Shown in pieces: positions 8,452 to 61,133 of a stretch of DNA of 64,000 nt. The notes beneath the pieces are model-generated. The model did not search any database. It was given only the letters and a program-made list of their open reading frames with translations, and was not told the origin of the DNA. Location: positions 21,781 to 85,780 of the forward strand of contig JAGCXM010000028.1 in NCBI GenBank assembly GCA_017961325.1, given 5' to 3'. A program made the position numbers and the translations under genes. Positions within the stretch are counted from its first letter, which is position 1, and the number at the start of each line of letters is the position of its first letter. The stretch is from a bacterium (GTDB lineage Bacteria; UBP6; UBA1177).

Positions 8452-10941
<2,490 letters not shown>

Positions 10942-10952
10942 CGGAGGGAAAA

Positions 10953-46287: not shown

Positions 46288-49077
46288 ATGTTTGGTCGTT
46301 TTTTATTTGTTGCAATCTTATTTTTGTTTCCGTTCGGGATTTTCAGCGGAGATATAACTTTTTCCGATTTTTACCACTTTTCTTCGCGTTCATGGAATGC
46401 CGTTTCTGGGCTTCCCCACAACAATGTCTCATCTTTTTACCGTGATGAAAAAGGTCTGCTCTGGGTAGGAACGGTCGAAGGGCTAGTCAGAATCGATTCT
46501 AAATCGTCCAAAATTTTCAATACAAGCACGACTCGTGCTATTTTGAGCAATAAAATCAACGACTTGTCAGGATGCTACGGCAAAATTTTCGTTGCGACTC
46601 CGATGGGGGTTTCAGAAATCAGTGATTCAGGCTTGAAGATTTCTAAGCTCGCCGAAACGCACGCCATTTTTGATATCGAAACACTCACCGACTGTACTCT
46701 CTTTGCGACGAACGGCAAAGAAATAATGATGATAAAATCAAATAAAATCAGTAAGTTGAGCGAAATAACGGCATTCCCTGAAAGTCCCGTTTCGGTTCTT
46801 TTTTCAGACGGTTTCGCACTTTATGCCGGTTTTGAAAACGGCGAAATCAGAATTTTCGGCGAGGACGGTTTCTCAGGAAACCTCTGCGGCGCAAATTCGT
46901 CGCCGGTTACTGCCGGAAGAGCAAAAGATGGAAGAATTTTTGCCGGAAACGCCGACGGAACCGTTTTTGAACTGAAAAACGGAAAGTGCTTGAAAATTGC
47001 AAGAACCGAATCGCACAAGGCGGTAACTTCACTCGATTTTCAGGAAAAAACAGTTGCTTTTGTCTCCGACGGGGCACTTTTCTTTGCCGAAGGCGGTGCT
47101 CTGAAGCCGTGCGGCAGTTTCTGCGCAGACAACGGTTCCATTTCAAAAGTTATGCTTGACGACGATTTCCTGTGGCTTTCCGGAAGCCGCGGCGTAACTT
47201 TGTTTTATCCTGGAAAATTCATAACTTTGGGACGTGAATCGGGGCTTTTTTCCGAAAAGGTCTATGCCGTTCTCGAAGATGATTCCGGCAGAATCTGGGC
47301 CGGCACACGCGGCGGCGGACTTTTTGTCTACGAAAACGGAAAATTCAGATACCTGAAGGACAGAAAGGGTGATATCGGGCGTTTGGTAGGAGGATTGTTT
47401 CAGAACGACGACGGCAGCATACTAGTCGGAACGACTTCCGGAGTGATTTCGTTTTTGCCGGAAAAGCCCAGTGTTTTCAAGAAGATGAAAGTTTCTCGCA
47501 ATGGAAGTATGAATGCCGTCAGTGTTATTTTCCGTGACAGAAAATCGCGTCTCTGGGCAGGCGGCAGCGGCGGTGCTATTTATCTTGATACCAAAGACGG
47601 CTGGCATCTTCTCCGTAAATTCGGCGACGAATCCGATTTGGTTTCGGCAATCGCTCAGGATAGTCGCGGAAACCTTTGGTTCGCCGCCTCGAAGGGTTTG
47701 TGGCAGCTTGACAGAAATGATGAATTTCATGAGATAAATCAAGGTGTTGACGGAAATATGCCTGTGAGTCTCTTTGTCGATGAAAACGATGTCGTTTTCG
47801 TCGGTTCGATGCACCGCGGCCTCACTTTGATTTTTCCCGATCTTAAATCCGCACAGCTTGATTCACGGAAAGGGCTCTGCAGCGACACGATTCTGGGAAT
47901 GACGGCAGATGAAAGCGGAAATCTCTGGTTTTCAAGCACAAACGGCATTTTTTCCCTTTCAAAACAAGAGGTTGTCGAAGCGGCAAAAAGCGAGAACGGT
48001 TCGCTTTCATGCACTCCTTTCGATTCTACTGACGGAATCCGCCGGCCTGAATCGACGGGAGGAGTCCAGCCTTCTGTTTTGAAGCGCAGAAACGGCGATC
48101 TGTGGTTCCCGACCCTTGAAGGAATCGCGGTTCTCAGACAAAACGGGAGAAAACCTGTTAAATTTGATTCGCTGGTACCTGAAGAAAATCCAACTATTAT
48201 TGTGAAAAGTGAAGAAAAATCAAATTTTTCCGGAATTTTCGTGATTTTGGCGGTTTTTGCTTCGGTAATTTTGGTTTTTGCGGTGAAAAAAGCTTTCAGA
48301 CCTCGCCTCCGGACCCTCTCAAGTGTGGGAGACCTCACCCCTGAACCACTCTCCGGTGTGGCGAGGGGAGAAGACCTCACCCCTGAATCCATCTCTGAAG
48401 CGGTTAGGGGAGAAAAAAATGAGGTCGCCGAGCCTGTGGAACAGAGTCAAGATAATTCTGAAAATATTGAACCAGAAACTGAATTTCTTGAAATTATTGA
48501 AGAAATTGATGATGAACCTCACCCCCGGCCCCTCTCCAGTGTGGCGAGGGGAGACGAGCTTGTTTCCGAACCTGTTTCTGAAGCGGCGAAGGATGAAGAC
48601 CTTATTTCTGAGCCTGTTTCTGAAACGGCAAGGGGAGATGATGAAGAACTTTTCGATCCTGCGGCCGACGAGGTTGAAGAAAAGCGGAAATATGAAGGCT
48701 ATCAGCTGGATGAAGAGATCGCAGCAGCTTATGCCGCCGAGGCGAGAGAGTTGATGGAAAAAGAAAAACTCTATAGAAATCCATATCTTACGATGCCGGA
48801 GGTTGCAAAGAAACTGAAGCTTTCGACAAATACGCTTTCTCAGGTTCTGAACGGCTACTGCGGTCAGACTTTTTACAATTTCATAAATACATACCGGCTT
48901 GAGGAAGTTATTGCGATGATGCATGATCCGAAATGTGACGGCAAAAGCATTCTGAAACTTTCGATCGAAGCCGGCTTCAATACGAAATCGACTTTCAACA
49001 ACATTTTCAAAAAGCGTACGGGACTCACTCCGGCGGAATTCCGCAGAAACATCGGAAATCAAGAAAAAAAGCAATAA
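46288..49077 (+). CDS. One-component transmembrane regulator: two-component-regulator beta-propeller (Reg_prop/Y_Y_Y-like) sensor domain, one TM helix, an acidic repeat-containing linker, and a C-terminal AraC-family HTH
   Basis: N-terminal propeller repeats (LWVGT..GL, LWFAASKGL, LWFSSTNGI); TM IFVILAVFASVILVFAV; C-terminal AraC HTH (...LSIEAGFNTKSTFNNIFKKRTGLTPAEFRR). Confidence 0.7.
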   Translation: MFGRFLFVAILFLFPFGIFSGDITFSDFYHFSSRSWNAVSGLPHNNVSSFYRDEKGLLWVGTVEGLVRIDSKSSKIFNTSTTRAILSNKINDLSGCYGKIFVATPMGVSEISDSGLKISKLAETHAIFDIETLTDCTLFATNGKEIMMIKSNKISKLSEITAFPESPVSVLFSDGFALYAGFENGEIRIFGEDGFSGNLCGANSSPVTAGRAKDGRIFAGNADGTVFELKNGKCLKIARTESHKAVTSLDFQEKTVAFVSDGALFFAEGGALKPCGSFCADNGSISKVMLDDDFLWLSGSRGVTLFYPGKFITLGRESGLFSEKVYAVLEDDSGRIWAGTRGGGLFVYENGKFRYLKDRKGDIGRLVGGLFQNDDGSILVGTTSGVISFLPEKPSVFKKMKVSRNGSMNAVSVIFRDRKSRLWAGGSGGAIYLDTKDGWHLLRKFGDESDLVSAIAQDSRGNLWFAASKGLWQLDRNDEFHEINQGVDGNMPVSLFVDENDVVFVGSMHRGLTLIFPDLKSAQLDSRKGLCSDTILGMTADESGNLWFSSTNGIFSLSKQEVVEAAKSENGSLSCTPFDSTDGIRRPESTGGVQPSVLKRRNGDLWFPTLEGIAVLRQNGRKPVKFDSLVPEENPTIIVKSEEKSNFSGIFVILAVFASVILVFAVKKAFRPRLRTLSSVGDLTPEPLSGVARGEDLTPESISEAVRGEKNEVAEPVEQSQDNSENIEPETEFLEIIEEIDDEPHPRPLSSVARGDELVSEPVSEAAKDEDLISEPVSETARGDDEELFDPAADEVEEKRKYEGYQLDEEIAAAYAAEARELMEKEKLYRNPYLTMPEVAKKLKLSTNTLSQVLNGYCGQTFYNFINTYRLEEVIAMMHDPKCDGKSILKLSIEAGFNTKSTFNNIFKKRTGLTPAEFRRNIGNQEKKQ
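48301..48660 (+). repeat. Degenerate ~39-42-bp tandem units inside the regulator CDS, encoding (S/T)EP(L/V)S.(V/A)ARG(E/D)(D/E)L. Best units at 48333-48370, 48375-48412 and 48517-48553.
   Basis: Units of the form cctcacccc-N-ctctcc-N-gtgtggcgaggggaga, closely related to the gyrA terminator hairpin at 13485-13527. Confidence 0.7.
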
Positions 49078-49257: not shown

Positions 49258-49995
49258 TTGACGGAGGTGGACGTGAGACAGACAAAAGGCTTTTCATTGA
49301 TCGAATTGATGATTGCTTTGGGAATAGTTACGATTCTGGCGACTATTGCCGTTCCCAGAGTTCAAGTCTGGAATGCCAGAAACCGCGGTTTGCAGTTGAT
49401 TATGGAGATCGTCTCGGATTTTTCAAAGGCAAAGTTGATAGCCGTATCTACGGTTGTTAAAAACGATGGCGGGTCCGAAGGAAAAATCGAGGTTCCATCC
49501 GGTAACGGTTCCAATACCGTCAACCTTGGCACGCGGCCTCAGGTTGCAATGGTTTTCTGGTCAGATGGATATAAGATTCTGCAAAAGGCATCACTGAACA
49601 GTAATTGGGAAAACGCTGAAAGTCTTAGAACACAGAAACTGCTTGACTATGTCCATATCGCAACCTTTGCTGACAGCAACATTAACGAGAATATCGTAAT
49701 GAGCAAGGGTTTTTCAAATGCGAAATCCATCGTTTTTACTTCAACCGGATTTGTCAAAAATCAGGACGGTGGCATGATAGAACCGAAACCGAGCAGTGAT
49801 TATGAGTGCGGCGATGTAGATACTAAATTGGCGTCGATTTTTTCAGCTGTTGTGAAAGCCAAGATCAGCGGCACGACAGATGCGATTTGTTACAGGGGTA
49901 TTGTAGATCAGGCCGGGAGATACAACATTTGCATGACTTTTGCACAGGGAGGCGCTGATTGTGATTTCTCAAAAGGATCCGTTGTTGAAATGTAG
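49258..49995 (+). CDS. Type IV minor pilin, FimU/GspH-like (prepilin-type N-terminal cleavage/methylation domain). Probable true start is GTG 49273, giving leader MRQTKG|FSLIEL.
   Basis: KGFSLIELMIALGIVTILATIAVP class-III signal peptide; RBS GGAGG at 49263-49267. Confidence 0.75.
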   Translation: MTEVDVRQTKGFSLIELMIALGIVTILATIAVPRVQVWNARNRGLQLIMEIVSDFSKAKLIAVSTVVKNDGGSEGKIEVPSGNGSNTVNLGTRPQVAMVFWSDGYKILQKASLNSNWENAESLRTQKLLDYVHIATFADSNINENIVMSKGFSNAKSIVFTSTGFVKNQDGGMIEPKPSSDYECGDVDTKLASIFSAVVKAKISGTTDAICYRGIVDQAGRYNICMTFAQGGADCDFSKGSVVEM

Positions 49996-50004
49996 GAGAA
50001 AAAT

Positions 50005-50586
50005 ATGAAAAAGATTAAAGCTTTTACTTTGATAGAGGTTATGGTTTCTATTTTTGTTTTTTCTTCTGCCATGATCGGATTTATGGCGTTTCATGTTTAT
50101 ACCAAGTCGGTTCTGTTCGAGCAGGAAATGTTCCAGGTGGCAAATGCGCTCGCTTCAAACATGCTTGAGGAAATAAACGCCATGTCTTACAGCGGTTTCC
50201 GCGAACATTTTATAACAAACGCACCTCTAAAAGAATGGAGAGAGGACAAAGAGTTTGTTGATTCAAATGGTGAGTCTTCCGGTACATCTTCCGGTGCATT
50301 TGGCAAGGGTTTTGTAGCAAGTCCTTTTAATTCTTTCGGAAAGCCGTCGCCTGATGCCAATGATAACTACCGTTTTTACAGAGCTGTAAAAGTTACGGCG
50401 TACGCAGAACGAACACAGAGGTTTGTTCAAAAAGGTACATATCTTTCCACGCTTTATGAAGTTGAAGTGCGTGTAGCGTGGCCGAAAAGTGATTATCCTG
50501 CGCACAGTTGCGATAAATCCGGTTTTAATGACAAATGTGAGTCTATAACTATTCCTTTGATAAGATCGGCCGAAAACTATAGATGA
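50005..50586 (+). CDS. Type IV minor pilin, PilV-like
   Basis: MKKIKAFTLIEVMVSIFVFSSAMIGFMAF prepilin N-terminus (G|FTLIE with Glu5). Confidence 0.75.
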   Translation: MKKIKAFTLIEVMVSIFVFSSAMIGFMAFHVYTKSVLFEQEMFQVANALASNMLEEINAMSYSGFREHFITNAPLKEWREDKEFVDSNGESSGTSSGAFGKGFVASPFNSFGKPSPDANDNYRFYRAVKVTAYAERTQRFVQKGTYLSTLYEVEVRVAWPKSDYPAHSCDKSGFNDKCESITIPLIRSAENYR

Positions 50587-50599
50587 GAAGGAGTGATAT

Positions 50600-51706
50600 A
50601 TGGGTAAAAACGGTAATATGAAAGCTTTCACCATTATCGAACTTATGGTGAGCATATTTCTTACGATATTAGTAGTAGCCTCATTTTACAAACTCTACAA
50701 TATAGCATCAAGGGAAGAACGTTCTTCCGCAATCAGAATCTCAATCAATGTTGCCGGTGAGCAGATGCTTGATGCGATTTCAAATGCAATCAGATTTATA
50801 GGCTTGAACGGCAAACTCTCCGATTTGGACTTTTATAATAGCGGGACAATTAGTTCTGCCAGGCCGTTAATAAGGATTGCGGAGCAAGATCAGTTCGAGT
50901 TTCTCTCACCTTACGGCGGACCTGTAACCAAGCTGGCCAAGGATGCTGAAGGAACGTATCCGAACTGCACTTTCACCTTGGTCAGCAGTACCGCCCTCAG
51001 TAATAAAACAAAATCCTTTTTCTTTCACAATCAGGATGGAATTTTTGAAACAGAAGAAGACGAGGACTTAACTGTAAGCATAAGCAGCAGCGGTGAACTC
51101 GTTTTTACAAACGGATCAGGTTTTAAAAATGCTCCGAGAAACGATTTGGACGGTACGGAGTGCAGTGCTGTTTTTCCGTACGGGACGTTAGTTTCAGGAC
51201 AGGATAATTTTTTTATGCTGAAGTACAACGATGCTACCGGGCAGCTTAAACTCTGCTTTACTGATAAAGAAAGTATGATGACCTCGGCAGACTGTATTAA
51301 TGGATTTAATGAAGAAAAGGACACATCGGTTGTAAATTTTATGCCAGATGCAGATAAGACTTACGATATGCCCACATTCTTCATTCAGTATCTCACTGAA
51401 ACCAAATCCGGAAATGATCTCGTTGTAAAATGGCAGAACGGTACCTTGGGTACCTCGGAGGGCGAAGATCTCAGAAAAGATATTGTCGCAGTCAGGTTCG
51501 GATTTGTTCTTATTTCGGAAAGAACAAGAAATGAGGGAAACTATCCTGTAAATTTAAATTTTAGCGAGGAATACTGCATTTTCGGTGACGAGAGATACAA
51601 AACAAAAGATTGTTATACTCTTAGAGACCCGAACAAAACTGCTTATGTTTTTCGGCGTGTAGTATACCTTGCAAATCATCGTTTGCTGAAAGATTTCAAT
51701 AATTGA
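50600..51706 (+). CDS. Type IV minor pilin, PilW-like
   Basis: MKAFTIIELMVSIFLTILVVASFYKLY...; 368 aa, typical PilW size. Confidence 0.7.
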   Translation: MGKNGNMKAFTIIELMVSIFLTILVVASFYKLYNIASREERSSAIRISINVAGEQMLDAISNAIRFIGLNGKLSDLDFYNSGTISSARPLIRIAEQDQFEFLSPYGGPVTKLAKDAEGTYPNCTFTLVSSTALSNKTKSFFFHNQDGIFETEEDEDLTVSISSSGELVFTNGSGFKNAPRNDLDGTECSAVFPYGTLVSGQDNFFMLKYNDATGQLKLCFTDKESMMTSADCINGFNEEKDTSVVNFMPDADKTYDMPTFFIQYLTETKSGNDLVVKWQNGTLGTSEGEDLRKDIVAVRFGFVLISERTRNEGNYPVNLNFSEEYCIFGDERYKTKDCYTLRDPNKTAYVFRRVVYLANHRLLKDFNN

Positions 51707-51714
51707 GGTGAAAA

Positions 51715-52323
51715 ATGCTGAAAATCACGTTTCATTCAAGAGGTGCAGCGCTTTTTGTAAGCGTTCTGATGACATTGAGCCTTTCGATTATAGCTTTAGC
51801 AACCATGTCGAAACTTTCCGAGCTTTCCCACACGGGAGTCGGTGATTCGGAGGAGAGGCGGCTTCAGATATATGCTTTTTCTGCGATGAATATCGTAAAC
51901 GGTGAGCTCAGACAGCTTCTTGATTCTACTCTGGATTTTGCAGACTTTTATTCGATCGGAGCCGGTGAAACCGTATCTATAAATGTTACCAACAGGGATT
52001 TCAAATACTATCCGTTAGACACCGGTAAAGGCGGCAAGGAAACGAAATTTGCATATCGTGCGATTGCGAGAAAGCTCACGACTAACAGCGATGCATTGCT
52101 TTACGGCATAGTAGGTAAATTTAAATTTAATTTAAACAAAGATGCCTGCTACGATATCATGGTGGATGTAATACCAGTTACATTTATCGGAACTAGCACC
52201 AATAATGTAATAGAAGTGGAAGAATCCGGAGACAATCCGGATCAATATGTTTTAGGTAAAATGAAGACTGTCGGGCAGATAAGCTGCTTTACAAAAGGAG
52301 AAATTGATCATACAGGTAATTAA
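51715..52323 (+). CDS. PilX/GspK-like minor pilin (PilX N-terminal-type hydrophobic segment, no Glu5)
   Basis: MLKITFHSRGAALFVSVLMTLSLSIIALATMSKLSEL. Confidence 0.65.
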   Translation: MLKITFHSRGAALFVSVLMTLSLSIIALATMSKLSELSHTGVGDSEERRLQIYAFSAMNIVNGELRQLLDSTLDFADFYSIGAGETVSINVTNRDFKYYPLDTGKGGKETKFAYRAIARKLTTNSDALLYGIVGKFKFNLNKDACYDIMVDVIPVTFIGTSTNNVIEVEESGDNPDQYVLGKMKTVGQISCFTKGEIDHTGN

Positions 52324-52337
52324 ATAAGAGGTGTGAT

Positions 52338-55300
52338 ATGAAACGGTTTGTAACACAAAACAGAATTTTAGCAGTTTTCGTTTCGGCGCTGTTGCTTCCG
52401 GTTTTGCTGGTGGCGGTGACGGAATCGGAGTTGGATGATGTTGCGGCTATGATTACGGTTGCCAAAAAAGCTGCCAATACCATTTTTATTCTCGACACCT
52501 CCGAAAATATGAACAGTTTTGCGTACAGCGACTATATCGAAACTTGTGCAGACGCTTATGCTAACGCTGAACATGCACATGAAATCTGTCTTAATTCTTT
52601 GGAACAGTGCCTGGAAGTAAAGGACGCAACTGATGGTTTCTGCGGCAGTGTCGACTGTACGCAGCTTGCGAACGGTTGCGATGAGATTAAGACGACGCAG
52701 AAAAGAGTTGAAAATTACTGCAATGATTTGAAGGCTGTTTACGCTTTCATGGATGATCCTGATCATCAGCCGGAAAACAGACAGCTGACCAGATCAGGAA
52801 CCGACCCGAAGAGAGAGAGGTTTGTCGGTCCTTGGAATCCTGACAGTTTCTATACGCAAGATCTCTGTTTTTACGACTGGACGAACGATACCAACGGTGA
52901 CGTACTGAACGGAACTACTTCCGAGCACTGGTCTAATCCGTCCTGCGACTATGATCCGGAACATTGCCATAATGTCGGAACATCCAAAGAAAAAGACCCG
53001 AAAGGTGCAACGTTGTCTGAAACCGCTTATTACGGCAGTGACCGCAGGGACTGGGACTGCATAACCGACGGTAACGACAATATGGACAACGGTCAGAGTT
53101 TTTCATCTTTGAAGGGCGGCGTCAGCGGGCACTGGCTCAACTGGAGATACGCGACATCCCTTGATGCCGTTAAAATTCTTCTTGCGAATGTCCACCAGTT
53201 TTCATATCCTCCGAGGTGGAGAGGCGAAAACAAGTGTATCCAATACAATTACAAGCCGGTCAAACCTGACATAACTCAGTGTGAAGAAGGCTACACTAAA
53301 GAGGTCGTTAATGATGCAACGGGCGAGGTCCGCTGTAAGGATTCAGACGGTAACACGGACAAATCTTATTACAAGAAGATATGTTTCATAAGCCCTGAAC
53401 CAACTAACGGCGGATCCTATTTTGATACGGCGTATCTGGACAAAGAGGATGAAGAGCGGTCTAAAATCCTTAATGCTATGCGTACGCTTGTTTCGGGTTC
53501 ATGGTCGGCTGACGATAAAGGCGAACACGAAAATGAGGTTTGTGCAAACTATGACTTGTTAGCCGATTTTTCGTTCTATGACAAAAAAGACGGTCCGGGT
53601 TTGCATTTTGATAAAGGAACATCCGCACATCCGGCACCAGTCAGTGCGGAAACGGCCGGTTGTCACAAGTGTATGAAGTTTAACGGTGATACCGAGGATC
53701 CGGCTTTTGAAGAAATGGATTGCGAGGAGTTTGAAGTCGATGCAGAATTCGATAATAACATACCGAGAGAACAAAATTTCGACGGTGAATATACTGCCAC
53801 ATATAGTCAGAAATGCTGCAAAACTTCTAAGTGTACAAATCCAAAGTGCAGGGACAACGATCTTTGCTGCAAGAATAATAGTACAGCTTATCCGGACGAA
53901 ACTTCCGAAGGATACAAAACCTGTCTTAAAGACGGCGAATATCAGTGCAACCTCGGTTTTTACAGCGAATTCGACCAGGATAAGACCCACTGCTGCGGAT
54001 CGGTGGAATGTGTAAACGGTGAAACAATCGAAGAGTATCTGACCGATACCACGACCGGATGCCAGATCTGCTCGATCGGTTCAGTAATGACGGAAAAAAA
54101 CGAAACCTCTACTTTTGTCAGCGAACCTGTTCTTCCTAATCCAGGGGCATATATGTATGATGAGAACATAGAGTTTAAAGTTAAAATCGCATCCATGGAT
54201 GGTGGGGATAACATTGAAGATATGACGGTAACGCTTTATTACGCCTGCAATAACGATACCGACTCGTGGCATGAGATGGCAAGTTTTACCTGTTACAGAG
54301 ACAGTGATCCTGACTGCGAAGACTATTATGAGAATGATAAGGAGATAATGACTCCCAAACTTTCCGGTTGTGAAACTGAAGGTTATAAGGTCAAGCTCGA
54401 AGTTTCTACTACGGGAAGATACTGCAAGATAGAAAGCAGCGAAAGTTTTTCAGTCTCATTCAAATACGAACTTCCGGAAGGTAACTTCTCCGGTAAAAAA
54501 GAGTGGCAGAAAGTATTAGATCCCACACAAGATTACTACATGATTCTAAAAAATCAGGCCGGCGGTGATCAGAGTGTGGTAGTTCATGAATATGAGTGCA
54601 AACAGGCTTTCTATCATACTCAGGCGTATACCGATTCCAGTTCCTGTCCTAGGGACGCGAACAAAATCGTTCAAAAATTTCACGAGAAGGGATATACGGA
54701 TGTCAAATACTGCGATCCGGATTACAGGAGAGAGGAAGTCATCATGAAGCAAAGCGGCTGCGGTTTTGAAATATCATATTTCTGTTCATACCTTTGCCGT
54801 GACGAAGTCACTTACAACGAACCCTGGGCGTGCATGGCTACATTCTTTCAGATGGACGAATACGAGAGAGGCGGTATTGAGAAATGTTCACAAGAGTGTC
54901 AGAGGGAATCGTATATAAGTCCGAATCCTTCAGGAGGAAAAACTAACAATGTCGAAGAATGCTGCCGTTGTATAGATCGTGCTTATTATTATGAGGCAGG
55001 CTGGTATCAGGATGAACCGTTTTTCGAGCCGGTGCAGGGTGTTTCCATGCCGGATGCTCCCGGTAGCAGTACAAAAAAGACTTACCATTGCGCCGTCAGT
55101 GCCATCAAGGGAAGTGACACTCAGGTCGGATTCCATGCCGAAATTATAAACGGACATACCAATGAAGTTATGAACAGTGTGACCGGCCAATATGACGGAA
55201 CATACCTCCTCAGTCCGTATGTCCTTGATGATGAAACCCTGTTCTCGCCGTATGATGAGTGGATTTCCGCTAGAACTTTCATTGAAACGAAATCAAAAGA

Positions 55301-58300
55301 CTTAGGTATCAGAGATACGACCATCAGCGGTTTCAAAACATCGAGCTCGGCGGAGAGAAGGAATGTCTGCATATACGATCTTTTGGATGACTGGGGCGGC
55401 GATCTCTGCAGCATATGCAGCACGGTTTCTTGCGGCAACTGCCTAGATCCTAGTATAAGTGTTCCTGATGACAAGTGTACCGATCCGAATTTCTGGATGA
55501 AAGTTCCGCGAAGCGAAGGCGGCGAGCTGATTTTCTCGAAGGAACAGATTGTCGATCCGGATTCAAGAGCCCGTTTCCAGAAGGCTATAAAAGAATTGAA
55601 AGCCGTGGGCGGTCCGACACTGGGTGAAACACTTTACGATGCATGGAGATTCCTCGGCGGAATGTATGCCCTGCACGATCCCAAACATGTTGTCGGTAGT
55701 GAAGAAGGACCTTATGAATCTCCGTTTGCTAACCAGGAACCGGAGTGTTTCTCAAACGAGGTCGTTGTTCTTTCGGGCGGTCAGGCACAGTTCGACCACA
55801 ACAACAGAATCGAAAAAGTGGAGGGCATTAACGTAACCTGTCCTTCAATGTCGCAGGTTAGCGAGATACCATGCGTCGCGCCTACCGAAGATGACTATTA
55901 TGACAACAGCGCGGATGGAGGCAGAGGTGGTTATGTGAATAGAAACAAACCTTATTACGAAACTGACTGGTATCAGTCATCCATTATGAATGTGGCAAGA
56001 TTTGTAAAGACCCATTCTTTCTATAATACTAATGAGAATTGTGTCAAAACCGACCAGCTGAAGAGAAATATTTTGGGTTATGAGGGAGATCCTGATGATA
56101 CAAAGTGTATGGAAACAATTGCTGGTGAAGGAAACAACAAGGCTGTTATAAACAGGATCCACTCCGGAGCTATCGGAGAATGGACTCTTTCGGCTCTCTA
56201 TAACAAACCAGACTTTGAATATCTGGAAAAAATCACGAAGAAGTATCCGACTGATGATGAAACGGCGACAGATGGCAAATACTGTTCGCTTACACTCGGC
56301 AAAGACAGTGTAAACGACTGTTCGTTCAGAAATATTACGGATCTTCTCTCCGATTTGTTGACGTTGCCTCAGCCTACCGATGTCGAGTCCGGTCGTCCGC
56401 ACTGGACATCTTCCCTTGTCCAGCCTTTCGATGTCGAGGAAAAATACCGCGGTCCGGAAGCTTATGTAGCCGGAGCTGTTCCCATAGCATCGGCAACGAG
56501 CAGATTCTGGTTCGGAAACCTCAAAAAATATATGGTCGACGAAGGAAATAGCGATTGCAACAAAACTATTTCGTGTGAGGGTTATGCGGAAAATAATGGC
56601 CAGTGCGGTACTGGCTGCGGAGGTTGGCAGAAACAGACATTCGCATCTTCGGCAGACTGTTTTGTCGATAATGACAATGGGGTTGGTGATATGCCTGGCG
56701 ATGACAGCGAGGATTTCAGAAGACTGCTTGCCGGCGGAGCCGCAAGAAAACTTTCAGATAAACTGAGAACCGAGACGTGCAGCAATCCTCCCTGCTTTAA
56801 GAAAGTAAGCACAAGGACGATATACTACGATGCGGACAATGCTCCGAATACTGACCTTAAGCTACTTAAAGATATCAGCGACGGCGACATGAGCATACTT
56901 CTCGACGAATTCGGATTGACCGGAGGAGCCGCTACAGCTGAAAAGATTTTCGATTATATGTACGGTTATGATTCGTTTGCCGATAATGTCGATCAGCAGA
57001 GGAAACTAAGATTCGGTTACGATAATAGTCCTACCGGCACGTCCATAACAGTAAGGGATCCGTTGAACATCGATTTCAACAACAAAAAGTATGTAACAAT
57101 CCGTCCGGTTCTTCTCGGCGCAATCGTTCACTCAAAACCGGTTGCGGTTTATTACGGCAATAATACCAAGACAAGAATTTTCGCAGGAGCCAACGACGGT
57201 ATGCTGCATGCTTTTGACGAAAGCGGAAATGAACAATGGGCTTATATCCCGAGCAATGTCCTTCCGTCCGTCCGCAAGATTGCCAACAATTCGAATTCCA
57301 TGAATTTCAAGGCTATGGTTGACGGTCCGATCACATTCTTCCACATTGATCAGAGCCATGACGGAATTGTTGATGAAGGCGAGAAGGCTTTCCTTATTTT
57401 CGGTTACAGGCGTGGAGCGAAAGGCTATACCGTAATTGATGTCTCCGAACCGGATAGCCCGAAATTCGTTCAGAATATCAACACGAACGGCGGTTACAGT
57501 TTCGGAAAGGCTCTCATATTCAGGAAGTGTCCCGGTGTTTGCAATTATGCGGAAGAACTTGACTATTATCTTGCCGTTCCCGGCGGTTACGACGATTGTG
57601 AAGACGGTGACGATCCTGACTGCAAAATGCCAGAGGACAGCTCAAATGAGGGCGGTAACGTTATGAAAGGCAACAAATTCGCTATTTATCCTTTCAATAA
57701 GGAACAAAACAAATTTTCAACGAGTGCAGGGTCATTTTTCAATTATGAGCGTGATTCCGAAGGTGAAACAAACAATCAGAAGAAATGGCTTGTCGCTTCG
57801 TTTGCCGCTGAACCTTTTGCAATAAACACCAAAGGCAAAAGATCAATCAATACCGAATTCGTCTACTTTACCGATCTTACCGGAACTGTATTCAGAGTCG
57901 ATGTCAGAGACGGAAATATACATGACTGGAAAGATAAAACAAAAGTCGTTTTTGCTAAGAGAAATTCCGCCGGCGATACGGGAGGCGTAAAACTCTTTGA
58001 ACAGGGCAAGAGTTATGCCGGCAACAATTTATTCCCGCCTTTGGAAATATACAACCCCGGAGGCGACAATAAGGAGGGACTGGTTCCGATCCCCGTCGTA
58101 TTCGGAGACGCTTCGTGGCCGAAAATTGATACTGAAAAAGCTTCAATGACCATTTTCTACGACAAGCAGCCTAAGGAGGATGAAGATTATCAGGCAAGTT
58201 ACAGCGGTTACAACTCGAATGATTATGAAACCGCAGATCTTAACAACAACAACCAGTTCCATTCCGGCAAGAGCGGTTGGAGAATAGATTTCGGCGGCTC

Positions 58301-58715
58301 AGAAGATTCGAAAGGTGAAAAAGGCATCACGGAGCCGATGATACTTTACGATCTTTACGGCAGCAACGGAAGTTCAGACACGTATGATTACTCGCTTGCA
58401 TGGAACACATATGTTCCGAAAAAGAGTACTGATTGCATGAATTTCGGAACGAGTTTCAACTACGACAGACATGTCGTGGACGGTTCGAATATTTTGAAAC
58501 TGACAGAAATGTCCAGTACTGTCGGCGAATGGGATCCTTCGAAGTGCAAAGACTCTTCGACGCAGGGCATAAGTGTTGCGACTGCGGTAGGAGTGGTTGC
58601 AACGAGTGAGGGATACGATCTTGCTTTCGGAGCGGGAGCAGACATATACAGAAAGCCGGGAATTACTGTCGTTATCAGTACGACCCGTGTTCTTAAATGG
58701 TATGAGCTTTACTAA
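52338..58715 (+). CDS. pilY1: Giant (2125 aa) PilY1-like pilus tip adhesin: N-terminal vWA domain apparently interrupted by a ~1000-aa Cys-rich insertion, plus a C-terminal PilY1/PilC beta-propeller domain
   Basis: Signal peptide; vWA start TIFILDTSENM (MIDAS DxSxN); later vWA elements AVGGPTLGETLYDAW and EVVVLSGGQA about 3.1 kb downstream; C-terminal RIFAGANDGMLHAFDESGNEQWAYIPSNVLP (PilY1 hallmark) and DQSHDGIVDEGE Ca-loop-like motif. Confidence 0.8.
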   Translation: MKRFVTQNRILAVFVSALLLPVLLVAVTESELDDVAAMITVAKKAANTIFILDTSENMNSFAYSDYIETCADAYANAEHAHEICLNSLEQCLEVKDATDGFCGSVDCTQLANGCDEIKTTQKRVENYCNDLKAVYAFMDDPDHQPENRQLTRSGTDPKRERFVGPWNPDSFYTQDLCFYDWTNDTNGDVLNGTTSEHWSNPSCDYDPEHCHNVGTSKEKDPKGATLSETAYYGSDRRDWDCITDGNDNMDNGQSFSSLKGGVSGHWLNWRYATSLDAVKILLANVHQFSYPPRWRGENKCIQYNYKPVKPDITQCEEGYTKEVVNDATGEVRCKDSDGNTDKSYYKKICFISPEPTNGGSYFDTAYLDKEDEERSKILNAMRTLVSGSWSADDKGEHENEVCANYDLLADFSFYDKKDGPGLHFDKGTSAHPAPVSAETAGCHKCMKFNGDTEDPAFEEMDCEEFEVDAEFDNNIPREQNFDGEYTATYSQKCCKTSKCTNPKCRDNDLCCKNNSTAYPDETSEGYKTCLKDGEYQCNLGFYSEFDQDKTHCCGSVECVNGETIEEYLTDTTTGCQICSIGSVMTEKNETSTFVSEPVLPNPGAYMYDENIEFKVKIASMDGGDNIEDMTVTLYYACNNDTDSWHEMASFTCYRDSDPDCEDYYENDKEIMTPKLSGCETEGYKVKLEVSTTGRYCKIESSESFSVSFKYELPEGNFSGKKEWQKVLDPTQDYYMILKNQAGGDQSVVVHEYECKQAFYHTQAYTDSSSCPRDANKIVQKFHEKGYTDVKYCDPDYRREEVIMKQSGCGFEISYFCSYLCRDEVTYNEPWACMATFFQMDEYERGGIEKCSQECQRESYISPNPSGGKTNNVEECCRCIDRAYYYEAGWYQDEPFFEPVQGVSMPDAPGSSTKKTYHCAVSAIKGSDTQVGFHAEIINGHTNEVMNSVTGQYDGTYLLSPYVLDDETLFSPYDEWISARTFIETKSKDLGIRDTTISGFKTSSSAERRNVCIYDLLDDWGGDLCSICSTVSCGNCLDPSISVPDDKCTDPNFWMKVPRSEGGELIFSKEQIVDPDSRARFQKAIKELKAVGGPTLGETLYDAWRFLGGMYALHDPKHVVGSEEGPYESPFANQEPECFSNEVVVLSGGQAQFDHNNRIEKVEGINVTCPSMSQVSEIPCVAPTEDDYYDNSADGGRGGYVNRNKPYYETDWYQSSIMNVARFVKTHSFYNTNENCVKTDQLKRNILGYEGDPDDTKCMETIAGEGNNKAVINRIHSGAIGEWTLSALYNKPDFEYLEKITKKYPTDDETATDGKYCSLTLGKDSVNDCSFRNITDLLSDLLTLPQPTDVESGRPHWTSSLVQPFDVEEKYRGPEAYVAGAVPIASATSRFWFGNLKKYMVDEGNSDCNKTISCEGYAENNGQCGTGCGGWQKQTFASSADCFVDNDNGVGDMPGDDSEDFRRLLAGGAARKLSDKLRTETCSNPPCFKKVSTRTIYYDADNAPNTDLKLLKDISDGDMSILLDEFGLTGGAATAEKIFDYMYGYDSFADNVDQQRKLRFGYDNSPTGTSITVRDPLNIDFNNKKYVTIRPVLLGAIVHSKPVAVYYGNNTKTRIFAGANDGMLHAFDESGNEQWAYIPSNVLPSVRKIANNSNSMNFKAMVDGPITFFHIDQSHDGIVDEGEKAFLIFGYRRGAKGYTVIDVSEPDSPKFVQNINTNGGYSFGKALIFRKCPGVCNYAEELDYYLAVPGGYDDCEDGDDPDCKMPEDSSNEGGNVMKGNKFAIYPFNKEQNKFSTSAGSFFNYERDSEGETNNQKKWLVASFAAEPFAINTKGKRSINTEFVYFTDLTGTVFRVDVRDGNIHDWKDKTKVVFAKRNSAGDTGGVKLFEQGKSYAGNNLFPPLEIYNPGGDNKEGLVPIPVVFGDASWPKIDTEKASMTIFYDKQPKEDEDYQASYSGYNSNDYETADLNNNNQFHSGKSGWRIDFGGSEDSKGEKGITEPMILYDLYGSNGSSDTYDYSLAWNTYVPKKSTDCMNFGTSFNYDRHVVDGSNILKLTEMSSTVGEWDPSKCKDSSTQGISVATAVGVVATSEGYDLAFGAGADIYRKPGITVVISTTRVLKWYELY

Positions 58716-58725
58716 GGAGGACAAT

Positions 58726-59508
58726 ATGAGAAAAATTTTAGTACTTATTTTTGTCGTTGCTCTGAATTTCACACTTTTTGCTGACAGAACGGCCGGAAAA
58801 GGCAACTCATATTCGGAATTCCCGTTTATTGTTCTTGTCGGACAACTTGTTGAAATCAATCCGTTTTCTGTTGTTTTTGAAAACACTTTGTATGAAGCGA
58901 ATACCGACACTGAAAAAATAGGCAGACTAATAGAAGTCTTTGAAAAGGATACCGATTTCAGATCCCACGGGATGGCCAATGCTCTTCGTGCGGCTAGCGT
59001 GAAAAACGGAAAAATGAGGCTTTCCTTCTATGTGGACAATATTTTCAGAATTTTCAGCAACGATGCTTCAACTTATGTACGTTATCTTCCCCTTTTACAC
59101 CTTTTCGAAAACAATATCAAAGAAGTAATGCTTACGCCGGAGCAGGTAGAGAGAATCAAAAAGATTTCGGCTGAATATGTCCTCAATCTTCCGGCAGCTA
59201 AGGAACTTATCAAAAATTCCTGGCTTGCAGGAGTTTTCCAGATCAGTCCGACTGACGGTAAACTTGTTTATAAAAGTGCGAGATTCTTTAAAGATTTTGA
59301 TGAACTCAACCAGAGTGAGTGGGCGAGGAACTACAGAATTCCCGATATTGTCAGGAGAGGGATGACCGTTTCAATGACGAAGGCGATTTTTATAGGTCAT
59401 GAATCCGAAAACGTTAAGAGCGAAGAGAAGGAAAAAGGTGAAAAATCTGGACAAAATAAAAAACAGTTCGATAATAGAAGCGGTGCTCCTGCCGGAAGGG
59501 AGAAATAA
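58726..59508 (+). CDS. Secreted hypothetical protein in the PilY2 position of the minor-pilin operon. Start taken at ATG 58726, preceded by AAGGAGG; the ORF track begins at 58597, overlapping pilY1.
   Basis: Signal peptide MRKILVLIFVVALNFTLFA; operon context. Confidence 0.55.
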   Translation: MRKILVLIFVVALNFTLFADRTAGKGNSYSEFPFIVLVGQLVEINPFSVVFENTLYEANTDTEKIGRLIEVFEKDTDFRSHGMANALRAASVKNGKMRLSFYVDNIFRIFSNDASTYVRYLPLLHLFENNIKEVMLTPEQVERIKKISAEYVLNLPAAKELIKNSWLAGVFQISPTDGKLVYKSARFFKDFDELNQSEWARNYRIPDIVRRGMTVSMTKAIFIGHESENVKSEEKEKGEKSGQNKKQFDNRSGAPAGREK

Positions 59509-59509
59509 A

Positions 59510-59980
59510 ATGACTGCATCATCCAAAAGTTTCAAAGGATTTACAATGATAGAACTTTTGATGGTTCTTGCCATAATCGGTGTCATTGTGGCCTTTGCGG
59601 TTCCTATTTTTAGCTATTTTTCAGACAGTTCGAAAGTTGACGAGTTGAAGTCCAAGATGTTTTTATTGGCAGGAGCACAGGAAAAATATTTTATAAAAAA
59701 CGCTACATACGCTCCTTCATTACAGTCACTTGGAGGCGCAAATACGTTCGGAATCAGTGCTGATGACGGAATGGATTTCGCAACAGGCGTTTATATTAAA
59801 AAAGGCGGCGAAATGTTCTACTGGATTTACGGCAAACGCTGTATAAACAACACTCCGCACTGCTGGCTTTATATTCCGTCTTTGGTGTCCAAACAAACGA
59901 CGGATGTTACTAATTTCATAGAATTGAAATCCGGTGTGAAGGTAGCTTACGACATACCGAATAATTGCGTGTGTGAATGA
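59510..59980 (+). CDS. Type IV pilin (PilE/PilA-like). Start ATG 59510, immediately after the previous stop.
   Basis: Leader MTASSKSFKG|FTMIELLMVLAIIGVIVAFAVPIF; C-terminal Cys pair (disulfide loop). Confidence 0.75.
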   Translation: MTASSKSFKGFTMIELLMVLAIIGVIVAFAVPIFSYFSDSSKVDELKSKMFLLAGAQEKYFIKNATYAPSLQSLGGANTFGISADDGMDFATGVYIKKGGEMFYWIYGKRCINNTPHCWLYIPSLVSKQTTDVTNFIELKSGVKVAYDIPNNCVCE

Positions 59981-59991
59981 GGGAGAAATTT

Positions 59992-60390
59992 ATGAAAAGA
60001 AAAGGTTTTACGCTTATAGAAGTAATGATTGTGCTTGCCATTGTTGCTGTTCTCTCAGCTGTTGCGATTCCTCTTTATACGGGTTACACCAACAGAGCTA
60101 AACAGGTAGAGGCTGAAGAACAGCTGATGAATATAGCTGCGATCGAAGCAGATTATTTCAACAGTTTCAGAAAATATTTGATAGGTTCTTGGAAAACTAC
60201 TGATGAGGATACGACAATTCTTACCGATTATTACGGTGCCAAGCTTAAGGGAGATTATTACACAATAGACATAACGAACCTCAACGGCTTTACAGCAAAG
60301 GCCTGCGTATGTTACACTGGTCAAACATGCTGTGATTTAAGTTGCACTGTTGATAAAAGCAATTCTAAACCAGACTGTAAAAAAGAATAA
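59992..60390 (+). CDS. Type IV major-pilin-like protein (PilA-like). Start taken at ATG 59992 (MKRKG|FTLIEV); the ORF track begins at 59977, overlapping the upstream stop.
   Basis: FTLIEVMIVLAIVAVLSAVAIPLYTGYTNRAKQ canonical pilin N-terminus; C-terminal Cys residues. Confidence 0.8.
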   Translation: MKRKGFTLIEVMIVLAIVAVLSAVAIPLYTGYTNRAKQVEAEEQLMNIAAIEADYFNSFRKYLIGSWKTTDEDTTILTDYYGAKLKGDYYTIDITNLNGFTAKACVCYTGQTCCDLSCTVDKSNSKPDCKKE

Positions 60391-60404: not shown

Positions 60405-61133
60405 ATGAGAGAAAAAATGTTACTCAGCTTTTTTATGATTACAGCCCTTTTCTTTTTTGTTTCCTGCGGTGAAGAGACTGACTCGGACAGTCTCAGCATC
60501 AGCAGCAACGGAACTGAACTTAACAGGGAGGAACTGAGAAAAGCGAGATTCAAACCTGCTCCGACTATTTTGAAGAAGAGTCCGCTCCGCAAGATGAATA
60601 CGCAGACTTGGGGTCCGGTTTCAACGGGGCAGACACAGTGTTTCGATCATGAGAAACAGATCGAGTGTCCGGCATCCCGCCAAAATCGTTTTTTCTTTCA
60701 GGACAGAAGCAGAATCGGAACGCGTTCTCTGACTGCAACGGACAGCCAGACGATAACGGATGACGTTACGCACCGCATTTGGAGCAGACACATAAAAGAA
60801 AATGTAACGTGGTATGAAGCCAAATATTATTGTGAATCTTTGAGAATGGCGGGCAAAAGATGGCGTCTTCCGACTACTGCCGAGCTTCGTTCGATAGTGA
60901 ACTACGGACAGATAGATCCTGCGACAGACGCTATTTTTTACCAAGGTATCGATAAAACCTCTCTTTCCAAACAGTTCTGGGCATCGGATCATTCCCGTTT
61001 AAATTCGGAAACATCGGACGGCGATGAAAAACAGTATGCTGCGGCATGGATAATCAATTTTTTTGACGGATTTGTCGAGTATACATCCCGTTACAATGTT
61101 TATAACGTACGTTGTGTAACAGAAGCTGATTAG
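60405..61133 (+). CDS. Lipoprotein with a Fib_succ_major/DUF1566-type domain
   Basis: Lipobox FFVSCG; WRLPTTAELRSIVNYG motif. Confidence 0.6.
   Translation: MREKMLLSFFMITALFFFVSCGEETDSDSLSISSNGTELNREELRKARFKPAPTILKKSPLRKMNTQTWGPVSTGQTQCFDHEKQIECPASRQNRFFFQDRSRIGTRSLTATDSQTITDDVTHRIWSRHIKENVTWYEAKYYCESLRMAGKRWRLPTTAELRSIVNYGQIDPATDAIFYQGIDKTSLSKQFWASDHSRLNSETSDGDEKQYAAAWIINFFDGFVEYTSRYNVYNVRCVTEAD

Follow-up and report, generated by a model that had tools for sequence, protein, structure and literature searches.

A pilY1-like gene in a conserved minor-pilin operon

The window, by which we mean the whole 64,000-nucleotide stretch of DNA that was analysed, hosts a giant pilY1-like gene that is read without interruption over 2125 aa and has an even base composition along its length (Table 1). 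The gene sits in a standard, conserved minor-pilin operon of the kind expected for the PilY1/PilC family, with fimU, pilV, pilW and pilX upstream and a pilE-like gene downstream, and its neighbours show prepilin motifs and matches to PilV, PilX_N and ComP_DUS. The same gene order (fimU/pilV/pilW/pilX, pilY1, pilin) recurs in the related loci L081-L084; the 929-aa regulator is syntenic in L081, the sole related locus that extends that far upstream.

Table 1. Features of the pilY1-like gene and its neighbourhood (positions in the window; residues of the 2125-aa protein)
Feature	Residues (aa)	Position	Strand	Remarks
Reg_prop/AraC-HTH regulator		46288..49077	+	929 aa, upstream
FimU/GspH-like minor pilin		49258-49995	+	prepilin motif
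PilV-like minor pilin		50005-50586	+	
Minor pilin		50600-51706	+	PilW position
Minor pilin		51715-52323	+	PilX position
Four upstream minor-pilin genes together		49258..52323	+	
pilY1-like gene	1-2125	52338..58715	+	signal peptide aa 1 to ~29, without lipobox Cys
vWA strand beta1 and MIDAS loop	45-59	52470..52514	+	ANTIFILDTSENMNS; predicted paired strand
Insertion A	60 to ~258	52515..53111	+	
GxWLNW motif and helix	260-286	53115..53195	+	GVSGHWLNWRYATSLDAVKILLANVH; putative vWA helix alpha1
Insertion B	~290-1047	53205..55478	+	Cys-rich, mostly beta
Rest of vWA domain	1048-1345	55479..56372	+	beta2/beta3 1053-1069; helices 1074-1106 with GGPT (1091-1094) LGETL; beta4 1138-1146, then SGG replacing TDG; low-confidence ~70-aa loop 1147-1215; beta5 1273-1279; beta6 1315-1318; last helix 1333-1341
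Linker region	1346-1590	56373..57107	+	PilY1-typical RPHWTSS and SRFWFGNLKKY motifs
C-terminal PilY1 beta-propeller	~1591-2125	57108..58712	+	GANDGMLHAFD at 1617
EF-hand-like 12-residue loop	1671-1682	57348..57383	+	DQSHDGIVDEGE; family-specific
Equivalent of canonical PilY1 calcium loop	1828-1840	57819..57857	+	AINTKGKRSINTE; degenerate
Conserved secreted ORF		58726-59508	+	260 aa, PilY2 position, without family match
Pilin		59510-59980	+	downstream of pilY1-like gene
Pilin		59977-60390	+	ComP_DUS-type fold
Downstream group (260-aa ORF and two pilins)		58726..60390	+	

To place the protein among its relatives, we relied on 68 ordinary PilY1 sequences, taken from loci returned by a scan of genome contigs dominated by the generic GANDGM pattern; no member of the giant family was among these loci. 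Homology to ordinary PilY1s covers the C-terminal ~780 aa (linker and beta-propeller) and the ~300-aa vWA core. Alignments by hhalign reached probability 100 (E 1e-58 to 1e-60, ~810-885 columns), and residues ~1050-2125, aligned with 12 ordinary PilY1s (probability 100, E 2.6e-60), are colinear with them through vWA core and propeller. The tblastn matches of ordinary PilY1s start at aa 1331-1357 of the giant protein. Searched against PDB sequences, the single protein and the family profile matched only the PilY1 C-terminal domain 3hx6 (E 3.5e-9 and 2.1e-15, respectively) and designed propellers. The C-terminal AF2 model (pLDDT 82.6) resembles beta-propellers, and Foldseek matched it to generic propellers only. 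The propeller of the PilY1/PilC family (Pfam PF05567), including the GANDGMLH blade motif, is thus present, and the terminal IIKWYELY is invariant in the giant family. On the whole protein, the sole Pfam match is PilY1 (aa 1611-1706), at a sub-threshold 22.6 bits (cut-off 28.1), and an NCBIfam search returned nothing meaningful. The operon, the hhalign and 3hx6 matches and the propeller-like model bear out the original prediction of a PilY1 homologue.

That prediction had also raised the concern that a frameshift or assembly artefact joins two genes. Many assemblies yielded another 50 protein clusters, 1794-2182 aa long and 28-60% identical to the query; coverage of the query is 100% in 44 of them and falls short of 95% in just two. 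The Cys-rich segment is kept in all 50, one cluster sits on a 2.8-Mb contig, and the genes surrounding the homologues keep identical order. We therefore reject the fusion, to which we give practically no chance. The gene product is a real, conserved PilY1-type pilus tip protein of an uncultured rumen bacterium. The affiliation with Fibrobacter that had been assumed finds no support: GyrB relatives with 60-77% identity bear, where a source is given at all, just the label 'bacterium', named taxa occur only at ~52-56% identity, with no Fibrobacter among the names listed, and the Lcl_C protein has no match to the NCBIfam model of the Fibrobacter paralogous domain.

A vWA domain probably interrupted by a cysteine-rich segment

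The motifs on which the original prediction was built all lie where it had put them (DTSEN at aa 53, GGPT at 1091, VVVLSGG at 1142, GANDGMLHAFD at 1617 and DQSHDGIVD at 1671), and so does the Cys-rich segment of ~1000 aa: 56 of the 76 cysteines fall within aa 60-1047, a density of 5.7% vs 1.8% in the remainder of the protein, and the net charge of this segment is -86. In the family alignment, conservation reaches 95% or more in 49 Cys columns. When the profile of aa 60-1075 was searched against 1.84 billion representative proteins, all 24 matches were family members or their fragments. The ~990-aa segment is therefore found in every member of the family and nowhere else, and the earlier impression that it has no recognisable homology holds in Pfam, NCBIfam, PDB and this profile search. 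Against ordinary PilY1s, including the long L023 and L034, the insert profile gave nothing significant, and its sole weak signal was the GxWLNW-helix element.

The DTSEN motif and the GGPT and VVVLSGG motifs had been read as parts of one vWA domain split by a single insertion. The giant protein shares a hhhhhDxSxSM motif right after the signal peptide with 40 of the 68 sampled PilY1s. Two ordinary PilY1s, L003 and L015, have Pfam VWA matches above the cut-off, and PilY1 vWA cores match PF13519 and PF00092. The vWA core of the giant protein, taken alone, aligns by hhalign with these cores (probability 97, E 1e-10), so that its homology to vWA domains is only transitive. Since hmmsearch with the family vWA-core profile matched only 2 of the 68 ordinary PilY1s, hhalign and a profile from ordinary PilY1s were needed. 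No significant match to a vWA sequence profile was found: neither the native protein nor four spliced or C-terminal constructs had a Pfam VWA match at E up to 10, PDB profile searches returned no vWA chain, and vWA was absent among the Foldseek matches of both the N-terminal and the C-terminal model.

These negative results in the spliced constructs and in Foldseek, together with the shortness of the beta1 alignment (15 columns only, probability 46%), would fit a different arrangement, in which the DxSxS strand lies outside the vWA domain and aa 30-1047 form independent domains followed by a vWA remnant without beta1; we consider this very improbable. In the AF2 model of aa 40-1239 (pLDDT 79, pTM 0.71), aa 50-59 have a mean pLDDT of 91 and aa 40-49 one of 66, and beta2 and beta3 appear only in the model that contains beta1. 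The two vWA-like sides very probably belong to one vWA domain.

The element that parts the Cys-rich segment is the GxWLNW motif with its helix (pLDDT 86-93). It weakly matches, by hmmsearch, sGNWLNY..sRIDALrKvl in five ordinary PilY1s (E 0.02-0.7 in the 68-sequence database). When it was added to an artificially spliced construct, the hhalign alignment grew from 87 to 124 columns and the E-value fell from 1.1e-9 to 9.4e-13. Its alignment with helix alpha1 of PilY1 makes it probable that the ~990 aa consist of two insertions, of ~200 and ~760 aa, one on either side of it. The sequence alignments and the predicted model strongly suggest a vWA domain assembled from three pieces (aa 45-59, 260-286 and 1048-1345). 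Insertion A would follow the MIDAS loop, where PilY1s usually carry insertions, and insertion B would lie between alpha1 and beta2. The proposed split is supported, probably in the form of two insertions instead of one.

Such a split is no peculiarity of this lineage, as had been supposed. The gap between beta1/DxSxS and the rest of the vWA domain spans 30-451 aa (median ~170) in the sampled PilY1s, over 40 rows of which three rest on non-significant HMM matches. L003, for instance, has a CUB domain between its DxSxS motif and the start of its Pfam VWA match (residue 386, at profile position 15). The sampled PilY1s normally have their vWA domain interrupted behind the MIDAS loop, which explains why domain databases often miss or truncate it.

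Predicted disulfides, metal sites and folds of the insertions

In insertion A, two helices (aa 64-97 and 108-135) are predicted to form a hairpin with six invariant cysteines (70/84/91 and 107/114/128), whose pairwise position sums all equal 198 and hence predict three stapling disulfides. In insertion B, the cysteines crowd together at aa 493-578 (CCKTxxCTNPKCRDND...HCC), blocks rich in beta structure lie at aa ~582-766 and 902-938, and a loop with cysteines, predicted with low confidence, spans aa 1018-1043. Stable disulfides are not self-evident in a protein exposed to the rumen, which is a reducing environment. This habitat, strictly anaerobic, and several CxxC pairs (442/445, 575/578, 1024/1027, 1032/1035) would suit CxxC, CC and clustered cysteines that bind metals (Zn or Fe-S) instead of forming disulfides. 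However, the symmetric spacing on an antiparallel hairpin suits disulfide staples, variable cysteines are gained and lost as local pairs (phi = 1.0), and the protein is exported by Sec. Other long PilY1s are Cys-rich as well (50-51 Cys in L023 and L034), and the only Fe-S match of the PDB profile search, NUKM, is non-significant (E 0.56) and lies outside the insert. Metal binding by these cysteines thus appears improbable.

The original prediction had proposed a cellulose- or glycan-binding module. Foldseek found nothing in PDB for the N-terminal model at E 1e-3 or better; its best matches were TNF-like and jelly-roll folds with probability <0.4, which do not justify a lectin or carbohydrate-binding assignment. 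No such fold was detected, and the proposal is unsupported.

The metal sites of the conserved domains are also modified. Of the 51 family members, all have D53 and S55 in the MIDAS, 43 have Ser at position 57, where this protein has Asn, 44 keep T1094, and 50 carry Gly (G1147) instead of the final Asp, so that the complete DxSxS...T...D set is lacking. The DQSHDGIVD stretch, earlier likened to a calcium site, does form an EF-hand-like loop, with D1671, G1676 and E1682 invariant, but it is not the characterised PilY1 calcium site, because 3hx6 and ordinary PilY1s have a gap at its position. That site, D851-D859 in the P. aeruginosa propeller, corresponds to aa 1828-1840, where 43 of 51 members have Lys in place of the expected coordinating Asp; an EF-hand-like calcium loop is thus missing at the characterised position. 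As read from the sequence, the metal sites are remodelled: the MIDAS is incomplete, the canonical calcium loop degenerate, and a new EF-hand-like loop lies nearby.

An extreme case of the PilY1 design

The giant protein shares with P. aeruginosa PilY1 (3HX6) and Neisseria/Kingella PilC1/PilC2 its place in the fimU-pilVWX-pilY1-pilE operon and the succession of signal peptide, beta1/DxSxS, vWA core, WxGxLKxY linker motif and GANDGMLH propeller. Unlike them, it is ~2x longer, carries ~990 extra residues with 56 Cys inside the vWA domain, has Gly as last MIDAS residue, a degenerate calcium loop and the new loop 1671-1682, and scores below the Pfam PilY1 cut-off. The doubled size had been pointed out before; PilY1s of ~2000 aa exist, however, in betaproteobacteria (L023, 2095 aa; L034, 1979 aa). 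Their ~650-780 extra residues lie at the beta4-beta5 vWA loop, whereas those of the giant protein, which has 76 Cys, follow beta1 and alpha1, and the two show no detectable similarity. Long Cys-rich PilY1 clades also occur in Myxococcota (clade 1.7, median up to 41 Cys; PMC13190605), and the giant protein resembles these clades, L023 and L034 in its enlarged and Cys-enriched N-terminal half.

ComC, the PilY1 homologue of Acinetobacter, carries insertions specific to its lineage in the vWA scaffold, and a ~90-aa 'finger' is required there for adhesion and twitching (Iruegas et al. 2023, PMC10374093). The principle is the same, a conserved vWA scaffold altered by inserted elements, but the giant insert is ~10x larger, multi-domain, disulfide-rich, without detectable relatives and probably at two loops. 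S. sanguinis PilB (7B7P), PitA (7W6B), SpaC (6M48) and Mfa5 (6TNJ) are vWA tip adhesins of other pilus types, with an unrelated overall architecture, no PilY1 propeller and a vWA domain that is contiguous or has small arms only. The giant protein is therefore an extreme case of an already described design; its insert size, cysteine content and orphan status (24 matches in 1.84 billion proteins) are new.

We consider it likely that the protein is a type IVa pilus tip protein whose three-piece vWA domain displays two inserted modules. By analogy with other PilY1s, the propeller would attach to PilX/PilW/PilV at the tip of the pilus. The disulfide-stapled insertions, displayed by the vWA scaffold, would then make up the outermost face of the pilus, would decide which targets it adheres to and might influence how it reacts to pulling force. 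The insert might instead be mainly mechanical, a disulfide-stapled spacer, shield or spring and not a ligand-binding head, that would control access to the MIDAS face or set the unfolding of the tip under retraction force. Its very high and conserved Cys content, the rigid stapled hairpin right after the MIDAS loop, the lack of a detectable lectin or carbohydrate-binding fold and the link between P. aeruginosa PilY1 vWA cysteines and force sensing (PMC9210963) are in line with this role. However, ~990 well-ordered, multi-domain and strongly conserved residues are much for a spacer, and the Acinetobacter vWA insertion is needed for adhesion (PMC10374093). We regard a mainly mechanical insert as rather unlikely. 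A mechanical role is compatible with that of a tip adhesin.

Within the preferred reading of a tip protein with displayed modules, we tentatively propose, as a possibility that is still doubtful, that insertions A and B jointly make up a disulfide-knotted, multi-domain 'head' of a kind not seen before, which would give the pili of this rumen lineage a new binding specificity, and that the PilY1 vWA domain is a display scaffold. The head may target plant fibre, other microbes or the host surface, and modules as large as ~800 aa may fit into the scaffold, in various lineages, at the loops after MIDAS, between alpha1 and beta2 and between beta4 and beta5.

PilY1s decide what type IV pili bind and how cells sense surfaces, and their N-terminal halves are poorly understood. 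In the giant family, the vWA scaffold accommodates as many as ~990 inserted residues, probably in two loops, and so illustrates how much extension it tolerates. Except for the helical hairpin, these confidently predicted residues (pLDDT 79) have no significant structural or sequence neighbour, which makes them a candidate for a new kind of adhesive module in an uncultured rumen organism.

A conserved gene of the PilY1 family

The giant pilY1-like gene has an even GC content, and its product carries 76 cysteines, of which 56 lie within aa 60-1047 (5.7%, compared with 1.8% elsewhere). This region is also highly acidic (net charge -86). The original prediction described a PilY1 homolog with a vWA domain split by a Cys-rich insertion of around 1,000 aa, and all the sequence motifs that it placed were located where it had put them (see the table). 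Among 5.8 billion proteins searched, one entry is identical (MBP5406737.1, 'hypothetical protein [bacterium]'), and 50 additional clusters contain similar proteins, 1,794-2,182 aa long and 28-60% identical, which together with the protein itself form the giant family. Query coverage is 100% in 44 of the 50 clusters and at least 95% in all but two. In every one of them a long segment likewise separates the two vWA-like parts, and conservation reaches 95% or more at 49 Cys columns of the family. These homologs derive from cow-rumen metagenomes and other assemblies, and one of them lies on a 2.8-Mb contig. The gene is therefore real, and a fusion of two genes by frameshift or misassembly is rejected. 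Overall, the predicted architecture is confirmed as an observation, while its interpretation is supported in part.

Pfam returned a PilY1 match at aa 1611-1706 that scores below the cut-off (22.6 bits versus 28.1) and gave no other support for PilY1 membership. The structure of the PilY1 C-terminal domain (3hx6) was matched with an E-value of 3.5e-9 by the single protein and of 2.1e-15 by the family profile. In local hhalign comparisons with 12 ordinary PilY1s, taken from PilY1 loci found in a scan of genome contigs, the giant family follows the ordinary proteins colinearly from aa ~1050 up to its C-terminal end (probability 100; E-value 2.6e-60 with the spliced and 1.7e-58 with the unspliced query). 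For aa 1050-2125, the AF2 model (pLDDT 82.6, pTM 0.82) has beta-propellers as structural matches.

Features of the window and reference positions in PilY1 proteins
Feature	Position	Strand	Description
gyrB and gyrA	8482-13481	+	adjacent
Reg_prop beta-propeller/AraC-HTH regulator	46288-49077	+	929 aa; long acidic repeat-like linker; upstream of pilin operon
Giant PilY1-like ORF	52338-58715	+	uninterrupted; 2,125 aa
Motifs of its product	aa 53 (DTSEN), 1091 (GGPT), 1142 (VVVLSGG), 1617 (GANDGMLHAFD), 1671 (DQSHDGIVD)		
Conserved secreted ORF	58726-59508	+	260-268 aa; directly after pilY1
Lcl_C (DUF1566) protein	60405-61133	+	242 aa; immediately follows two pilin genes; syntenic in all related loci
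Giant Cys-rich secreted ORF	61145-64000	+	at least 950 aa inside the window; after pilus operon, runs past window end
Start of Pfam VWA match in ordinary PilY1s	residue 386 (L003), 514 (L015), 150 (L001)		

A probably interrupted vWA domain

The reading of a split vWA domain draws support from several sides. On their own, aa ~1053-1155 align with the vWA cores found in ordinary PilY1s (hhalign probability 97, E-value 1e-10) through strands beta2 and beta3, a helix, GG-T-L-ETL and strand beta4; in two of these proteins (loci L003 and L015) the core itself scores above the Pfam cut-off for VWA/VWA_2. The motif hhhhhDxSxSM occurs immediately behind the signal peptide in 40 of 68 full-length ordinary PilY1s and likewise in the giant protein (TIFILDTSENM), and hhalign aligns 15 columns of it between the two groups. 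A paired strand at aa 45-52 is predicted in the AF2 model that spans aa 40-1239 (pLDDT 79.3, pTM 0.71), where aa 50-59 reach a mean pLDDT of 91 and beta2/beta3 (aa 1053-1069) adopt an ordered structure; without beta1, in the model beginning at aa 1050, beta2/beta3 are coil (pLDDT 50-79). Against this reading, Pfam VWA did not match the giant protein even after in silico deletion of the insertion, and Foldseek searches with the AF2 models found no vWA.

The VWA match that Pfam reports for ordinary PilY1s begins well downstream of the hhhhhDxSxSM motif and enters the profile only at positions 15-22. The L003 protein, from an uncultured bacterium, carries an inserted CUB domain (residues 270-373, E-value 2e-24) that separates the beta1/MIDAS motif from the remainder of the vWA. 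Across the 40 proteins with the motif, this gap measures 30-451 aa, with a sample median of ~170, after setting aside two spurious negative values and with three rows based on non-significant matches. An interruption behind the MIDAS loop is thus the usual state of the PilY1 vWA.

The Cys-rich segment of the giant protein is probably two insertions around a putative helix alpha1. The best-conserved stretch inside it, GVSGHWLNWRYATSLDAVKILLANVH (aa 260-286, pLDDT 86-93), shows weak similarity to sGNWLNY..sRIDALrKvl of five ordinary PilY1s (E-values 0.02-0.7, database of 68 sequences). Adding aa 255-290 to a spliced construct extended the hhalign match from 87 to 124 columns (E-value from 1.1e-9 to 9.4e-13), up to the GNxxNY and alpha1 element of ordinary PilY1s. 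The likely layout is beta1 and the MIDAS loop at aa 45-59, insertion A of ~200 aa, alpha1 within aa 260-286, insertion B of ~760 aa, and beta2 to the last helix at aa 1048-1345, including a further loop of ~70 aa after beta4.

Among the MIDAS residues, D53 and S55 are invariant in the giant family, 43 of the 51 members have S57 (Asn in the protein of the window) and 44 have T1094, and the last Asp is replaced by Gly in 50. The canonical PilY1 calcium loop, marked in the ordinary PilY1 of L001 by EF-hand and dockerin matches at 742-754, corresponds to the degenerate AINTKGKRSINTE (aa 1828-1840). DQSHDGIVDEGE (aa 1671-1682), an insertion relative to both 3hx6 and ordinary PilY1s, conforms to the pattern of a 12-residue EF-hand loop; its residues D1671, G1676 and E1682 are invariant.

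Orphan modules rich in cysteines

A profile of aa 60-1075 searched against 1.84 billion representative proteins retrieved 24 matches, all of them members of the giant family or fragments thereof. No relatives of the inserted modules were found in Pfam, NCBIfam or PDB, and Foldseek detected no significant neighbor. A predicted helical hairpin in insertion A, just after the MIDAS loop (aa 64-97 and 108-135), holds six invariant cysteines, 70/84/91 and 107/114/128, whose paired positions always sum to 198. Three disulfides stapling the two helices of an antiparallel hairpin together would be expected to give this pattern. Variable cysteines are gained or lost as local pairs (205/220, 1316/1328, 1481/1486 and 1731/1735; phi = 1.0 each, a value that shared ancestry could inflate).

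Genomic setting and known PilY1 variants

Four genes of prepilin or minor-pilin type, in the positions of FimU/GspH-like, PilV-like, PilW and PilX, precede the giant gene; it is followed by a secreted ORF of 260 aa, a pair of pilins, one of which has a ComP_DUS-type fold, and an Lcl_C protein. The gene order from the minor pilins through the Lcl_C protein to another giant gene behind it is identical in the related loci examined. The secreted ORF has no family match and occupies the place that PilY2 holds in Pseudomonas. In the Legionella collagen-like protein, the domain that binds glycosaminoglycans is Lcl_C (PMC11162425). The giant Cys-rich ORF at the window end, which may encode an adhesin co-encoded with the pilus operon, has counterparts of 3,363-4,255 aa in L081 and L082, two loci of giant-family relatives, and that of L081 has Lcl_C and Laminin_G_3 matches on record. 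The Reg_prop/AraC protein, a candidate regulator of the pilin operon, is syntenic in L081, the sole related locus that extends far enough upstream. A further very large ORF (1,857 aa; 40514-46087, minus strand) lies just upstream of the regulator gene on the opposite strand.

Among the top 120 GyrB matches, relatives at 60-77% identity bear at most the label 'bacterium', named relatives (Bradymonadales, Myxococcota, Proteobacteria) appear from ~52-56% identity, and the lineage therefore has no cultured or named close relatives. Since Fibrobacter is absent from the names shown among these matches, neither the Fibrobacter setting that had been proposed for the protein nor the associated idea of cellulose binding is supported.

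Lineage-specific insertions into the vWA scaffold are needed for adhesion in Acinetobacter ComC/PilY1 (PMC10374093), long Cys-rich PilY1 clades have been described in myxobacteria (PMC13190605), and in P. aeruginosa the vWA cysteines of PilY1 have been connected with force sensing (PMC9210963). Two of the sampled PilY1s, from Betaproteobacteria (L023, 2,095 aa; L034, 1,979 aa), carry 50-51 cysteines, and ~650-780 additional residues interrupt their vWA core at the beta4-beta5 loop, which is a second hotspot of large insertions in the PilY1 vWA domain. Given the published insertions and Cys-rich clades and these two proteins, the giant PilY1-like protein is not a new kind of system and represents an extreme, orphan variant of a known design.
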